Origin: Lingula anatina
Lineage: Eukaryota > Animalia > Brachiopoda
DNA length: 64,000 nucleotides
Reading direction: 5' to 3'
Assembly: GCA_051362555.1 (NCBI GenBank)
Contig: CM120645.1
Coordinates: 3,782,001-3,846,000, forward strand
Position 1 is the first letter of the stretch. Each line of letters opens with the position of its first letter. The notes beneath the pieces were generated by a model. It did no database searches and had not been told where the DNA came from. It was given only the letters and a program-made list of their open reading frames with translations. Positions 56,401 through 62,890 of the stretch are shown one piece after another. Both the position numbers and the translations under genes were made by a program.

Positions 56401-56830
56401 CTTACATCTGGATAGACATACCTATTGCAATGCCGACCACAATGCGTCCTGCAAGCAGCATATACTTGTCAATGGCGAGCCCCATAATTATGGACCCCAC
56501 TGTAAAGATTAGGCTGGCCGTAACGATAACAGGCTTGCGACCGAAACTGTCATTCAACACACCGCCAACTAAGGCAAACACGGCGGCCGCTCCTATCGTT
56601 ACACTCACTATAAGTTCCTGCCACAGGGAGTCCAGGCGGAACTCTTCTCGCAAGAGGATCATTGCTCCTGAAACCACCCCTGTGTCATACCCAAAGAGGA
56701 ATCCACCGATTGCTGAGAACAGTGTCAAAACGTAAACAAACGCTGGAGTTCGTTGTTCTTGCCCGATGCGGTCCATTCTTAGCGCAGAGTCGTCGTCCGA
56801 GTCATGCCCAAGGGTATTTGGGCGTTCCAT
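26929..56830 (-). CDS. SLC2A13: H+/myo-inositol cotransporter HMIT/GLUT13 (MFS sugar porter), 11 exons with an alternative exon 2; 594 aa (2a) or 593 aa (2b)
   Basis: Exons (minus): 56830-56422, [50903-50744 or 48630-48474], 42352-42278, 41911-41775, 41525-41414, 40859-40696, 31428-31323, 30400-30252, 29952-29860, 28580-28428, 27155-26929. Motifs: [51 protein letters not shown], the HMIT-specific Cys-rich exofacial loop (CDQCM...CGFCY...NGSC...GRC...WAYDYCPT), [39 protein letters not shown]. Confidence 0.96.
30443..30705. mobile_element. Fold-back MITE (GAGnGCATTCAGAA-type termini, PIF/Harbinger-like)
   Basis: Termini GAGGGTACTCAGAA / TTCTGAATGCCCTC. Inner arms CACTAAAAAGCAG/CTGCTTTTTAGTG and TAATCCCCTGATGG/CCATCAGGGGATTA. 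Confidence 0.6.
31087..31285. mobile_element. Fold-back MITE, same terminal family
   Basis: Termini GAGCACAATTAGAACAG / CTGTTCTGAATGCGCTC; arms GATCAAATATGGC / GCCATATTTGATC; flanks TAA and CAA. Confidence 0.6.
31897..34530 (-). mobile_element. Helentron/HINE element, family B, copy 2, with an internal duplication of about 1.1 kb (SLC2A13 intron 6)
   Basis: Same termini as 8194-10580. The block at about 32455-33625 recurs, partly deleted, at about 33626-34530. Confidence 0.72.
36091..36268. repeat. Minisatellite, 4 x 44 bp (ATAGCTAGGACCTACCCAGACCTAGTTGTAGTGGGCCCTAGTTC)
   Basis: Unit starts at 36091, 36135, 36179, 36223; contiguous with no spacers. Confidence 0.92.
36489..38816 (-). mobile_element. 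Helentron/HINE-type element, family A, copy 2, with about 8 internal 146-bp tandem units (SLC2A13 intron 6)
   Basis: Same termini and core as 6283-8047. Unit marks (TCAAAGGTCA) at 36700, 36844, 36990, 37136, 37282, 37428, 37574, 37720. Confidence 0.75.
44376..44420. repeat. (TAAA)n microsatellite
   Basis: About 11 perfect units. Confidence 0.9.
45825..46080. mobile_element. Fold-back MITE (GGGnnCATTCCCA-type termini)
   Basis: Perfect arms AGATTGATCCAACTCTGCAGGGACTCT / AGAGTCCCTGCAGAGTTGGATCAATCT; outer ATTCCCA / TGGGAAT. Confidence 0.6.
48474..48630 (-). CDS. SLC2A13: SLC2A13 alternative exon 2b (157 nt; TM4-TM5), hexose-transporter-like; absent from the ORF track
   Basis: tttgtcgcag|GT...TGG AG|gtagga, phase 1 to phase 2, no stop codons. 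Encodes [53 protein letters not shown]. About 57% GC by hand count within an AT-rich intron. Confidence 0.9.
50046..50347. mobile_element. Fold-back MITE (about 300-nt hairpin) between SLC2A13 exons 2a and 2b
   Basis: Arms CAGAATAGAAGATC/GATCTTCTATTCTG, ATGGCAGACCCTACATGAAAGGAAGAC/GTCTTCCTTTCATGTAGGGTCTGCCAT (perfect 27 bp) and CCTCTCACACACCTC/GAGGCGTGTGAGAGG. Confidence 0.7.
50744..50903 (-). CDS. SLC2A13: SLC2A13 alternative exon 2a (160 nt; TM4-TM5), HMIT-like
   Basis: ttttcag|GT...TGG AG|gtttgt, phase 1 to phase 2. Encodes [54 protein letters not shown]. Confidence 0.92.
51441..51809. repeat. Minisatellite, about 6 x 63 bp, in SLC2A13 intron 1
   Basis: Unit AAATGTTGGTAGGCAGGACAACAAAGAGATAAGATTGGCTGCCTGTGATTAGAAATTGTAACT; gives the 21-aa repeating ORF at 51428-51754. 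Confidence 0.92.
53514..53682. mobile_element. 169-bp MITE, copy 2 (5-bp TSD TAGTG)
   Basis: Same internal sequence and TIRs as 17027-17195; TAGTG on both sides. Confidence 0.85.
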
Positions 56831-57234
56831 TTTGGGTTAAAAAATGTCTCCCTAGAATAATCCCATTTTAGCAAGAAACTACCGCATGATACTGCCAACC
56901 ATCGGCCAAACCACCACAATGATCTTTCATTCTTACCGGTGCCTCATAACGAACTTGCATGTACATGCCATTATTCAAAATAGTGCAACAAAAACGGACT
57001 TTTATTTCACTTTATTTGATAAGTACAACTTCATCTTGGATTTTACTTAAAATCTTGAAGAACTAATAACTATTATTGGGTAAGTGCTCCAAATTTAGAC
57101 ATAAATAAACAATATTTCCAATACATATATTCATACGCACCAAGGGTTAATGTCATTTGAAGGTCGGGTCAAATTTGTTGTCGTGTACCATTTCCGCATA
57201 TGGTAGAAGAGAAAGTACCCAAGCTAGAACGATC
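56831..57234. promoter_or_regulatory. Probable bidirectional promoter shared by SLC2A13 and MGLL
   Basis: Divergent ATGs separated by 404 bp; CpG-rich first exons flank an AT-rich core. Confidence 0.55.
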
Positions 57235-60200
57235 ATGACTCAGGCCAGTGAAAAACAAACTCCTCAAGGTGTCCCCTACAGCACCGTGCCTCATTTCGTC
57301 AGCAACGTTGGCCACACAATCTTTTGCAAGTATTGGGATACGAAGTTCAAAGAGGACAGCCGGAAACCGAGGTTAGGAAACCGTGACGGTTTTGTTGTGG
57401 GCTACCGCAGCTGGGTATATGTACCGTGTATCTCAGCCTCTGTAAAGCGTAATAACTTTCATGTATGATACTTGTGCGAACATATAAAGTTGAATCATGT
57501 TTTATTTGATAATCAAAGTATAATGGGGAAATTTAGGCCTGGCACCACGGCAAATTATATGAATTTTCCCCCCTTTTTTTCCAGAGCCCTGTTGTTCATT
57601 GCTCATGGTTTAAATGAGCACTGTTTGTGGTACGACATCCTAGCAGAGCCTCTGGCGGACAAAGATGTATTGACCTTCTCCCATGATAGCTGTAAGAGAA
57701 ATCTCTCTCTCTCTCATTCACACACACACACGCACACACATATCTTGTATGATTTTAATTAAAATAAATGAATTAAAGACAGTGGCATTGAACTGTGCAT
57801 TCATAAGATATAGTATTGCACTTGAAAAAGTTTTCTCTGTTCACCAATCCTCTTTCACATTCTGTATACTAGTCTCTTACATATGGATACAGCAATACAA
57901 CATACATGTAGCTCAATACTGTCTTCATTTTGTTGGCTTAAATTTTGTGGTATTCTTCTTGTGATATTTCAGATGGCCACGGGCAGAGTGAAGGAACACG
58001 AGTTGACTTAGAAGATTGGTCCATTTACATTAAAGATATCTTTCAACACTGTGATGAAATGAAGGAAAAGTATTCAGACATTCCACTGTTCTTACTGGGA
58101 CATTCACTGGTAATCTTTAATTATTATCAAATTGAAAGATTGTCAGAAAAATTTTAGGTGTTGCTCTTGGAAAATCCAAAGGGTTGTGTTTCCATATCAA
58201 GTTCATTGCAAATATAATTTACTCTGATTAATCAAAATCTTCATTGTCAATTTACTCCTCTTTCTATTTATACATTGATTTTTATTAATTATTTTATCAT
58301 AAAAAATTAATAGCAGTCAACTGCATCTAATTTACATTACAATACAATGCCGCCAAATACTCATTTGTATGTAAATGAATAATTTACACTAACTAATGCT
58401 AATTAGGAATCATTATTTGCAAATATAATTTACTCTGATTAATCAAAATCATCATTGATCAATTTACTAGGCCCTTTTCAATGTAATCATGGAATTTACT
58501 CATTTTTTAATCAGATAAAATTCAGTCTGGCCAACTATATATAACTTACATTCTTAAATTTTTTTGTCTCAAAACAACATAGTATAATGTTAACATGGTT
58601 AACTATTTTCAGGGAGGGGCAATGGCTATCACGGCCACTCTAGAAAGACCTGATTATTTCCGTGGGATGATCCTGATAGCACCCAGTGTAGTGCCTCATC
58701 CAGACAATGTCACTCCTTTTAAAGTCAGTATAGTTTTCTTACCATATAAGGAGTATATAGCTGTTACCCACAAATTCCAATCACTGTACTAAAATTATGA
58801 GTAATTAGTATGATCATTGGGATATGCAATAAAGCAGTGTTTATATTTTGCACACCCTGAACTTCAGATAATAATAAACCATATTTGGCTGGCTTTAATT
58901 TAACCTATATTTAATTTTGATTTTAAATAAGCCAAAATACAGGGTGCATTTTCAGCCTCTTTTAATTCATTTGTGTTAAACAAGGTCTTTTACAAACTTA
59001 CAATAACCTAGATACATCATGAAATTTTTAAGAAGTTTTTTCTCTTCATAATTCCAATCATTTAACAGGTGTTTTTAGCTAAGATTCTTGCCAGATGGAC
59101 ACCCCAACTTCAGTTGGGGAAATTACCACATGATAACATGTGCAGGAACAAAGACGTGGTAGGCTTTGGATGTGGATCCTGAATTATCTTCTGTGGTTTA
59201 TGTGCCTGTTGTGTGCTGATTGTTTTTAGCTTAATCCTTAGGTGTGTTGTAGAGAGACTATGAAGTTTGCATTCCTTTTGGTGTTTTTGAGTGTAATTCA
59301 TCAGTGGAAGAAACCATGAATATGAGGTTGATCATGATGTTTTTTAACACACAAGGTGTGGCATGGAAAAATATACCATTAAGATTTTGCAAAATATGCA
59401 TTTTAAATATGCCAAAACATACTTCATTTTGGTGGGGTTTTTTTTCTAAATAAAATAATATTTTGAATTATGTAAGTTTCATGATTTCCATTTTACAATC
59501 TTATTATTGAAGTTTTTTTTCACTGATGAGGTGTTGATATTTCATCTTTGTAGCAATCTTATTGTAATAAATTATCTTAATGTTTAACCTAGATGTTTCA
59601 AAACAATTCACAGAGCTACCTGCTAGATATAACTTTTGGACCTTGTGGTTTTTCTACCAGAAAAAAAACAATTTTTTTGTGGGAACTGAAGCTTTTGAGC
59701 TGTATTTTTACAAGTTTGAAGAATTTGTTAAGTGTTTGTTAGTTTATCATTTGTTCTTGTTAAAACGCTACTACTTGCTAAATTAAAGATTGCATTTTAG
59801 CTAACAAGTATTTCAGTTCCCAAACTATTTTGATTTATTCATTTGTCAGACAAATAGTCTTACACAAAGGTGAAGGTCAGGCTGCAAAGGTGAAGGCCAA
59901 AGAAGCATATTTCTTTGAAGGTCAAAGTAGGTGATATTCCTTATCCTTTTGAAAGAGGAAAGTGCTTGCAAGATGAAGAAGTAGTCTTGTTTTCATAATA
60001 AGATCAAATGGCTGTTTCAAGATTTAGATATGACCACTACTTAAACACATCAACTGACATTAAATTTGTTGCCAACATGTGAACACAAATAGTGATAAGT
60101 TATTTCTAATTTGAATCGTTGTAAATAGACATATTGCTGGGCTGTAGCCCATTGAATAACTGGTCAGTTTTGTGTGTAGTGGTTTTATTTAAACCTAAAA

Positions 60201-62890
60201 CCAGCCTAAGGTAATACTGATGTGAACAAGACTTATCTTTGCAAGATATCTCTGCTGCAACTTCTTCTTTAGAGAGGTTTCTGAGGGGTCCACTCTTGCA
60301 TATTGATTTCGTTTTTAGCCATTTTAAAGGTTTTGTAAATGAAAAATGATATCATTTTTAGATCATATCAAGGAATTTGATTTTAAAGGACATTTTATTT
60401 TTTAAGTTGGCTAAAAATAATTAGGTGCAGAGTGGATCTGTATTTAAATAGAGAGTGCCTAACAAACTTTGCTTGCTTAAACTTAACAGCTTTTGCATGT
60501 GCATGTTTTTTTTCAGCTGTGGTTGGCTCACTGGATAGCTTGGTTATTTCCTCAAATGCAGCTGACTACTATTGATCGCACTCTTAACACAAGAGCACAA
60601 GAAATGGTATTTTGTTTAACTTAGTTCTATTTTGCTAGCAAAACAGTTTTTATTTATTTATTTATTATTATTATTTTATTTATTTATTTTTAATTTATTT
60701 TTTATTATTTTTTATTTATTTATTTATTTATTATTTTTTTTTTTTGCATATGTGATGTTCAGATTTCAGGTGTCATATTTTATAGTTTGTAATACAAAGT
60801 GCCATAATTGCACAACTGGTATCTTAGCCCCACCGAGTTAGTGGTACCTTCAACAGTATGCATGTGTTTGAGCATTAAAACTATTCAACTTTAGTCGGAA
60901 AATGTATTTTAGGTCTGGGGCTTTGGTATATAATAATCTGACATTGATTCAAGAGGAAATTAGTTTAAATGGATTATTTAGTATATTTTAACATATTATT
61001 AGAGATGATCATTTTCTTAGCTGAAACTTAATATTGTGAAGTTTTAGATATAAATATTGTTTATATAAAATTACTTATGCCGTATTATAACTAATAATCC
61101 AAGTTGAATTCTTAAGTAAAAGTTTTACTGTTTACCGCAAAAAATCAGCGTGGCTTTCTTTAATTTTCAAGAAATAGGAAGTAAATGAAGTGCTTAACCT
61201 TAACTAACTTTGAAGGTACAATCACATGATCAAGAGTAAATTACTGTACATACCCCCATAATTTCTTTTCCCAGGTAGAGAAGTATAATGCAGATCCACT
61301 GGTTTGGCAGGGAGGAATGAAGGCAAGGTGAGCAAGACATTATATAAATAAAATTTATTTAGGTTGCATCATGGTTAAGTAAGTAGACAACATACTGATA
61401 GAAAAATATGCATTATGATAGGAGAGATTATTCTCTATACACAATGTTAATTTTTCCCTTGCTTTACTACAGTCAATTCTCTTTATTGACACTATATTAA
61501 ACAGGTTTGGCGTGAGTGCCTTGAAAGGGTTAAAAGCCATCGAGGCCAACTTGCACGCAGTCACCACACCATTTCTGGTCCTTCATGGAACTGGGGACAG
61601 GATAACTGACCACAAGGGATCAGAAATGCTCCACGAGAAGGCTCAAAGTACAGACAAGACAATCAAGGTATAGAATATTAAGATGTCAGTCGTGTTCACA
61701 TCGAGATTGAATTAAAACTTATTTAAGGCTGTGTTCACATGAAAAATCTGTTTTCTAAAAATCTATTTGCGGTATCTTGTGATCACGGTCTGTGCCCTGA
61801 ATACCCCACGGCTTAATTACGGGCAGCACGAGCCAGTTACTTCCAAAGCTGTAATTAATTCTCGCCGCGGGGTACTCCGAGAAGTAGATGCGCAAATTAC
61901 TTACCTAGTAAGAATTAAATGGCTGCATGGCACTAGAGACTTTAAGTCTGTTTACCTAAATCACCACCCAGAAAACAGGTGAGAGTATAATTGCTGAGCA
62001 GTTGTATGAATAGGGCTGAATAACAGAGAGATTTCACAGGTGAGAAGTTCAAGAATTAGTGCAGGTGCTTTCTGGTATCATCCAGAGTTCTAGAGATTAC
62101 TGAAAACTCACCTGTGTAATCAACAAGGCTCAAGTGTCTTATGTTCAGTATCCTGTATCCTGATAATGGAGGCGGGTTGTCTGGCATTGGAGATATTACA
62201 AATTACTTACTGTTTTTGGAAAATACAATTAATCTTTTTTTTTTGTTTTTTCAAATTTTTTAAATTTTTTATAATAATTTTTTTTATAATTTTATAATTA
62301 CTATGTCAGTCAATGTAACTTACGCCTTGATGCCAGGAATAAAAGTCAAAGACCCAGATGTATCACATGAATGCTAGTTCACTAATTGATCAGCAAATCG
62401 CATTCAAAATGTTGCTTTTTTTAGTCTTCACATACCATATTGTCTGCCTAGGCATTTGTGGGGTGTTGTTTGTTGCCTGCAGGCTAGATTTTTTTATCAG
62501 GTTCAAATCAGATGTGATTATTGTTTAATGTGCACTGTTATAATGACCATTTGAAATTCATCAGACAATTTAATTTTGACCGGTAGGAAAATTGGACACA
62601 TTGGTAACTAAGACCCCATTCCCAGAGATTAGATCGATCCAACTAGATCGACCTAACTCCCCGGGACGGACATTTAAGCCGGATTATCTGACAGTAATCT
62701 AGTGAGACTCCCCAGGGGGATAGATCGATCTAAAATCTATGGGAATGCACCCTAAAAGTGTATCTTTTCATTTCAGCTTTATGATGGTTACTACCACCAG
62801 CTTCACTACGAACCCGATGATGATGGTGCTGAAGTGCGACAGGACATCTTTGATTGGATTCTGGCAAGAATTGATGCACCCTCTGGCTAG
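57235..62890 (+). CDS. MGLL: Monoglyceride lipase (alpha/beta hydrolase), 8 exons with an alternative exon 5, 303 aa
   Basis: Exons: 57235-57371, 57585-57691, 57973-58109, 58613-58723, [59069-59158 or 60517-60606], 61275-61327, 61505-61667, 62777-62890; total 912 nt. Motifs: QTPQGVPY, oxyanion AHGLNEH, HD.YGHGQSEG.R, nucleophile GHSLGG, YNADPL, PFLVLHGTGD (catalytic Asp), YDGYYHQLHYE (catalytic His). Confidence 0.93.
59069..59158 (+). CDS. MGLL: MGLL alternative exon 5a (90 nt, cap/lid segment)
   Basis: tttaacag|GTG...GAC GTG|gtaggc, phase 0-0. Encodes VFLAKILARWTPQLQLGKLPHDNMCRNKDV. Confidence 0.88.
60494..60505 (+). promoter_or_regulatory. Tandem RBFOX elements (TGCATG-TGCATG) between the branch point and polypyrimidine tract of MGLL exon 5b
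   Basis: cttaac (branch-like, 60482-60487), then agcttt TGCATG TGCATG ttttttttcag|exon 5b. Confidence 0.6.
60517..60606 (+). CDS. MGLL: MGLL alternative exon 5b (90 nt, cap/lid segment)
   Basis: ttttttttcag|CTG...GAA ATG|gtattt, phase 0-0. Encodes LWLAHWIAWLFPQMQLTTIDRTLNTRAQEM, which aligns without gaps to exon 5a (LA..., PQ.QL, R at the same position). Confidence 0.85.
62612..62752. mobile_element. Short MITE with TAA target duplication (PIF/Harbinger-like), 24 nt upstream of the last MGLL exon
   Basis: CATTCCCAGAGATTAGATCGATC / GATCGATCTAAAATCTATGGGAATG; TAA at 62609-62611 and 62753-62755. Confidence 0.6.

Follow-up and report, generated by a model that had tools for sequence, protein, structure and literature searches.

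The monoglyceride lipase gene (MGLL, encoding MGL) of the brachiopod Lingula anatina contains two adjacent, homologous exons for the same part of the enzyme's lid, exons 5a and 5b, either of which is spliced between the same neighbouring exons. This nine-exon gene occupies positions 57235–62890 on the + strand of a 64,000-nt stretch of contig CM120645.1 (assembly GCA_051362555.1, positions 3,782,001 to 3,846,000), referred to here as the window. The pair is a case of tandem duplicated exon substitution, although not a strictly mutually exclusive one. The full account proposed here, which we consider evenly poised between right and wrong, combines an old duplication of the lid exon, a choice of exon that differs between samples, a Trp-rich 5b that would anchor the enzyme more firmly, and Rbfox-type repression of the 5b acceptor.

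Two homologous lid exons in one lipase gene

The only protein matched at 100% by exon 7 is L. anatina monoglyceride lipase isoform X2 (XP_013395120.1). Its protein cluster has one further member, isoform X1 (XP_013395119.1); both are 303 aa long and differ solely in a 30-residue segment, which is that of 5a in isoform X1 and of 5b in isoform X2, so that both forms are already present in the automated RefSeq annotation. The two isoforms match the Pfam profile PF12146 (Hydrolase_4) with E values of 6e-73 and 2e-73. Human MGL is the best match in the PDB (E 7e-80), and the closest named matches are animal MGL or MGL-like proteins at about 40–50% identity, a similarity ranking and not a tree. Likeness to the human enzyme (PDB 3JW8, 3HJU, 3PE6) extends to the α/β-hydrolase fold with its MGL-type cap (TM score 0.93 and r.m.s.d. 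1.2 for the 5b model on 3JW8, Foldseek), to 41–42% sequence identity, to the catalytic triad S126/D243/H273, aligned with human S122/D239/H269, and to a gapless lid segment in which Lingula residues 165–194 correspond to human 161–190; the human redox cysteines C201, C208 and C242, by contrast, are W, R and T in Lingula. The initial annotation of the window had named the gene as MGL and placed the exon in the cap or lid, both of which hold, and the human MGLL segment that it gave agrees with the PDB sequence, to which the 5b isoform aligns without gaps and 5a in the same columns.

Exons 5a and 5b are each 90 nt long, in phase 0 at both ends and flanked by canonical AG/GT sites (aacag/GTG...GTG/gtaggc for 5a, ttcag/CTG...ATG/gtattt for 5b); their coordinates, lengths, peptides and spacing, with an intron of 1358 nt, are exactly as initially annotated. 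All four combinations of the two exons are in frame and without an internal stop, giving 303 aa with 5a or 5b alone, 333 with both and 273 with neither, which agrees with the earlier statements on single use and on double inclusion. As adjacent homologous exons of equal phase and length, they have the arrangement required for tandem duplicated exon substitution.

The copies are identical at 8/30 residues and 38/90 nucleotides. Of 100,000 shuffles, 4 scored at least as high as their ungapped BLOSUM62 alignment (26; p 4e-5). Identity at codon positions 1, 2 and 3 is 13, 17 and 8 of 30, and the near-chance match at third positions marks the duplication as old. A third copy is absent from the interval between exons 4 and 6, whose only other open AG..GT candidates (84–96 nt) scored −20 and −32. 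A haplotype duplicate or paralogue chimera, that is, an artefact of assembly or annotation, was rejected as having almost no chance of being correct: the copies share too few nucleotides (38/90), and RNA reads connect both copies with exon 4 and with exon 6, and 5a with 5b.

Elsewhere in the gene, position 58074 is T in the window (Ser116) and C (Pro) in all four RNA runs described below and in both RefSeq proteins; either the Ser116 allele is rare or the window sequence is in error here.

Exon choice in RNA and candidate splicing control

Four of nine Lingula RNA runs (X1, X3, X4 and X7) were mapped on window positions 57100–60630, with 134, 61, 52 and 82 reads mapped from about 6, 6, 6 and 25% of each run. 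As mapping stopped at 60630, joints to exon 6 were inferred from loose read ends. Counts of loose ends and variants are among those listed, and skipping from exon 4 to exon 6 was detectable only from three reads up. Some junctions fell in two rows offset by two bases, a pattern consistent with a synonymous allele of the final exon 4 codon; these rows were summed.

In runs X1, X3, X4 and X7, respectively, exon 4 is joined to 5a by 3, 2, 5 and 10 reads and to 5b by 12, 8, 0 and 0, and 5a is joined to 5b by 3, 1, 0 and 0. Exon 4 joins 5b in 20/25 reads of X1 and X3 combined and 5a in 15/15 of X4 and X7, a difference with Fisher p 8e-7 on reads (whose mates are not independent) and 1e-5 on start sites. 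Among the listed loose ends, those that match exon 6 come after 5b in X1 and X3 (22 and 11) and after 5a in X4 and X7 (6 and 6). Each copy is spliced singly into an otherwise identical mRNA, as seen from joints 4–5a with 5a–6 in X4 and X7 and 4–5b with 5b–6 in X1 and X3; the exons are therefore neither always included together, 4–5a–6 occurring alone in X4 and X7, nor is 5b a silent copy, its joints to exon 4 being present in X1 and X3.

The description of the exons as interchangeable stands in that both are spliced in, in reads as in RefSeq isoforms X1 and X2. It does not extend to strict exclusion, which fails through double inclusion in X1 (three 5a–5b reads) and X3 (one); owing to these joints, exclusion is leaky. 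Where 5b is on, 4/24 entries into it come from 5a, and since these four joints nearly equal the five reads entering 5a, the 5a present in X1 and X3 is probably mostly co-included with 5b. Depth is zero in the interior bins of introns 1–3 in all runs, and the introns flanking 5a and 5b carry reads, which fits slower, regulated splicing around the pair.

That 5a and 5b are functionally alternatively spliced is, in our judgement, very probable, and control of the choice by tissue or condition is likely, if clearly less secure. Several facts weigh against such control: exon choice coincides with study and genotype, and the tissues sampled are unlabelled; X1 and X3 belong to a single study and have variants in common, X4 is near the window sequence and X7 is more divergent; and counts are small (52–134 reads per run, 4/9 runs, 6–25% of each). 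As the 5a/5b split tracks study and variant pattern across the four runs, exon choice could be set by genotype, of a population or a cryptic species, and not by tissue or condition. We regard this as very unlikely, because both isoforms fall under one RefSeq gene model, X1 and X3 each contain both exons, and the divergent X7 and near-identical X4 pick the same exon.

Run X7 has 25 listed coding differences from the window (11 in exon 4) and X4 just 1, over positions 57235–60606, and X7 may represent a distinct population or cryptic species; its reads still carry the exon 5b sequence. X7 also has a small pile of reads within the 5a–5b intron (59932–60058), with few start sites and ending at 60058; it probably reflects unspliced RNA, or one or two molecules copied several times.

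Exclusion is not hard-wired in the gene, with an intron of this length between the copies, GT–AG sites throughout and double inclusion in frame. A search for docking and selector RNA pairing returned 46 inverted pairs, mostly AT-rich and none outstanding or convincing in this single sequence. A tandem TGCATG, a candidate Rbfox-type motif, lies in the 5b acceptor (CTTAACAGCTTTTGCATGTGCATGTTTTTTTTCAG), preceded by a candidate branch point (CTTAAC at 60483) and followed by the T-run. None of the eight other MGLL exons has TGCATG within 100 nt upstream, and two copies within 40 nt occur in 232/127,920 40-nt windows of the window sequence. The (U)GCAUG expected in the upstream flank of an exon repressed by Rbfox (Fox-1) is present before 5b. 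According to excerpts of PMC2777236, UGCAUG in this position represses exons including exon 5B of Caenorhabditis elegans egl-15, regulated by Fox-1/ASD-1 and SUP-12, where it likewise lies in the upstream flank near the branch point; in egl-15, however, repression falls on the upstream exon and uses a GUGUG co-site, whereas the Lingula candidate precedes the downstream exon.

In the absence of a repressor, the 5b acceptor (T8-CAG) would outcompete the weaker 5a acceptor, giving mostly 4–5b–6 and some 4–5a–5b–6; a repressor bound to the tandem UGCAUG beside the branch point would hide 5b and leave 4–5a–6. A single repressor of 5b would thereby account for the clean 4–5a–6 of two runs as against the dominant 5b with some 5a–5b of the other two. 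Speaking against this scheme, the TGCATG pair was spotted after the fact; the model gives no reason for the predominant skipping of 5a where 5b is on; and a downstream TGCATG, like the third copy after 5b, would usually activate an exon. Rbfox is accordingly named as the regulator of 5b only tentatively, at slightly less than an even chance.

Near the tandem motif is a TTAACAG resembling the 5a acceptor, 27 nt in-frame upstream of the used 5b acceptor (window 60484–60516), with the TGCATG pair between the two. It may be the original duplicated acceptor; its AG is used by no listed RNA joint.

Table 1. Features of the L. anatina MGLL locus (window coordinates)
Feature	Position	Strand	Remarks
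MGLL coding exon 1	57235..57371	+	ATG at 57235; joined to exon 2 in 4/4 RNA runs
MGLL exon 2	57585..57691	+	HG motif, His58; exon model and RNA reads
MGLL exon 3	57973..58109	+	GHSLG, nucleophile Ser126; exon model, RNA reads, human MGL alignment
MGLL exon 4	58613..58723	+	phase-0 end after first residues of lid helix α4 (PFK)
Exon 5a	59069..59158	+	family-typical in appearance; lid exon, residues 165–194 (human 161–190); RefSeq isoform X1
5a–5b intron	59159..60516	+	1358 nt, GT–AG; some unspliced reads; too long for steric exclusion
Tandem TGCATG-TGCATG	60494..60505	+	candidate Rbfox-type motif, at −23 and −17 relative to 5b
Exon 5b	60517..60606	+	apparently derived, Trp-rich lid exon (W166, W170, W173); RefSeq isoform X2
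Third TGCATG	60859..60864	+	253 nt downstream of 5b
MGLL exon 6	61275..61327	+	Tyr198, Asp201; start matched by loose read ends after 5a and 5b
MGLL exon 7	61505..61667	+	catalytic Asp243; 100% to XP_013395120.1
MGLL exon 8	62777..62890	+	catalytic His273, stop

The lid encoded by each exon

In AlphaFold models of both isoforms, a structure prediction that the initial annotation had suggested, helix α4 spans residues 162–174 and the next helix 192–200; exon 5 therefore supplies ten α4 residues and the whole of loop 4/5. The predicted local distance difference test (pLDDT) values of the models (89 vs 96) are not comparable, as the alignments had 13 vs 58 rows.

The two segments were compared with 63 non-redundant, gap-free homologous segments, drawn from 200 out of 399 proteins. 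Against this family 5a outscores 5b in 52/63 comparisons (mean 38 vs 22), and just 8/63 members score lower than 5b. The net charge of 5a is +3, and its first 11 aa carry +2, the most frequent value in the family (27/63). From these comparisons, 5a looks like the family-typical copy and 5b appears to be the derived one. The basic character ascribed to 5a is thus real, but it does not set that exon apart, since a basic helix is the family norm; it is 5b that is odd.

Counting confirms the three Trp residues earlier reported in the 5b helix. W166, W170 and W173 lie at helix-wheel angles of 0, 40 and 340 degrees, a 60-degree arc, and W173 occupies the position of human Leu169, where 5a has Arg. 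At 169, 5b is without the usual Lys or Arg (H169 in 0/63). The Wimley–White sum over the first 11 aa is −8.2 for 5b, −2.1 for 5a and −1.2 ± 1.9 for the family, the interface hydrophobicity of 5b exceeding that of 63/63 homologues. Three Trp residues in the same helix are also found in one amphioxus protein (P0007). Which side of α4 faces the membrane we take from the L169S mutant, discussed next, together with general background on the enzyme.

Excerpts of PMC7595040 and PMC5789057 describe the human lid as residues 151–225 with a mobile α4, and report that L169S/L176S abolishes the need for detergent; residues 176–179 form a rim of the lid (excerpt of PMC7595040). The human lid draws its substrate from the membrane, on which it opens in simulations (excerpt of PMC4976315). 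Owing to the Trp face, the placement of W173 at Leu169 and this uptake from the membrane, tighter binding of isoform X2 to membranes or lipid droplets is the leading reading. The duplication left one catalytic core with two lids; the W166/W170/W173 face of 5b would strengthen binding at the interface and shift the lid towards its open, membrane-bound state, so that the 5b form would be anchored more firmly in membranes or droplets than the 5a form. We somewhat favour the view that the swap changes membrane binding.

Set against this is a lower hydrophobic moment in 5b than in 5a (0.18 vs 0.38). Loop 4/5 of 5b is also off-family, with N188 and A191, like H169, in 0/63 and T181 in 1/63, and these changes may matter more than the Trp face; any difference in activity or binding between the isoforms is at present a prediction from sequence. 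The swap might instead act mainly through the loop, on which acyl chain length, head group or regio-isomer the enzyme prefers, and not on localisation, as 5b alters the conserved sites G181T, M188N (V/L/I in 55/63) and N191A (D/N in 53/63), a rim of the human lid lies at 176–179 (excerpt of PMC7595040), and the a/e exons of coq-2 offer a precedent (excerpt of PMC7434440). We hold this to be unlikely as the main effect, although it is not exclusive of one on localisation: the largest physicochemical shift falls on one helix face, at the site controlling detergent dependence in human MGL, and the catalytic and neighbouring residues are encoded in shared exons.

The low family scores of 5b given above, the existence of forms lacking exactly these 30 aa in 8/269 proteins, and the same three loop changes would also be compatible with reduced activity, 5b being a weakened or inactive lid and splice choice an on/off dial, like the exon-skipping isoforms of other animals. 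This is improbable, given that 5b predominates in two runs, has kept its frame open and P176, D184 and R190 unchanged although third positions are saturated, keeps the lid helix in its model, and has one listed read variant, which is synonymous (a test of low power). Firmer membrane anchoring by 5b remains the reading carried forward.

Relatives, neighbouring gene and significance

The 365 proteins carrying the nucleophile motif yield 252 pairs with near-identical flanks, and the segment is swapped in the Lingula pair only (8/30); the next-lowest identity, 18/30, is between different fish species. No doubled lid segment was found by nucleophile-to-DPL spacing in 269 proteins, no second-copy lid score was positive and above 1 among the matches listed, and no other brachiopod or phoronid was among the homologous proteins retrieved. 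That conservation outside Lingula was not found in the 365 homologous proteins counts against the proposed account, but such absence is weak evidence, because the cluster members examined were those of just 21 proteins and near-identical isoforms are collapsed in the databases used. As judged from these proteins, the pair is probably lineage-restricted. The proteins in which the segment is exactly missing include Branchiostoma lanceolatum isoforms X3/X4, Lineus longissimus isoform X2 and mammal-like unnamed proteins; as in Lingula, the 30-aa segment behaves as a removable module, but it is deleted there and swapped here. These forms suggest an old symmetric exon, which could therefore duplicate cleanly. 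Metagenome matches (the best 80 of 270 confirmed loci) have 22–35% identity, the full-length ones being unbroken, and were not used.

In Haliotis rubra, isoforms X1 and X2 (XP_046570972.1 and XP_046570983.1) have one difference, V/I at 159, the first residue of the lid segment, which could stem from an exon duplicated with almost no divergence or from a duplicate in the assembly.

Head-to-head with MGLL on the − strand is a sugar transporter gene (PF00083; exon 1 at 56830–56422), which we take to be SLC2A13-like. About 400 nt separate the starts of these oppositely oriented genes (56830–57235), which suggests a shared bidirectional promoter, and both have a duplicated exon pair. The transporter exon 2 copies (50903–50744 and 48630–48474, − strand; 160 and 157 nt, same phase) both match profile positions 119–170; their lengths are 3n+1, so that double inclusion shifts the frame, unlike in the MGL pair. 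TGCATG is absent within 100 nt upstream of either copy, with one 268 nt downstream of the second. A tandem array of units of about 60 nt lies in a transporter intron (window 51790–51460).

Whole-gene duplication has produced MGL-like paralogues on one scaffold in Saccoglossus and Branchiostoma, whereas Lingula swaps the segment within one gene. Closest in kind is coq-2 a/e of helminths, annelids and molluscs (excerpt of PMC7434440), in which homologous internal exons likewise swap part of a lipid enzyme, one copy family-typical and one derived; coq-2, however, is conserved in several phyla, is described as mutually exclusive and has its function shown, whereas the Lingula pair is known from one genus, is leaky and has a function so far predicted. 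As a general class, homologous exon swaps alter surface and functional sites (excerpt of PMC7954323). A catalogue of human tandem exon substitutions (PMC8373072; main text and one supplement searched) does not list MGLL, and literature searches found no paper on duplicated MGL lid exons or on this Lingula gene; the case is apparently annotated already but undescribed. MetazExp has 16 Lingula runs with mutually exclusive exon calls, which may include this event.

A more far-reaching picture, which we consider rather doubtful, is that Rbfox-expressing muscle and nerve would make the 5a form, soluble, amphitropic and degrading 2-arachidonoylglycerol, and other tissues the Trp-anchored membrane or droplet 5b form with a different substrate range; this would be the first lipase in the searched literature with a spliced lid exchange, possibly shared by other brachiopods.

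The reach of the finding is limited in that the mechanism class is well known, the isoforms are in RefSeq and conservation beyond Lingula was not found. Even so, a phylum that has been little studied here supplies a further tandem exon substitution, in a lipid enzyme and with a concrete candidate splicing element. The role of the MGL lid in membrane binding as against substrate choice has so far been probed by point mutants and simulations; two natural lids on an identical core offer a direct two-protein comparison for that role.

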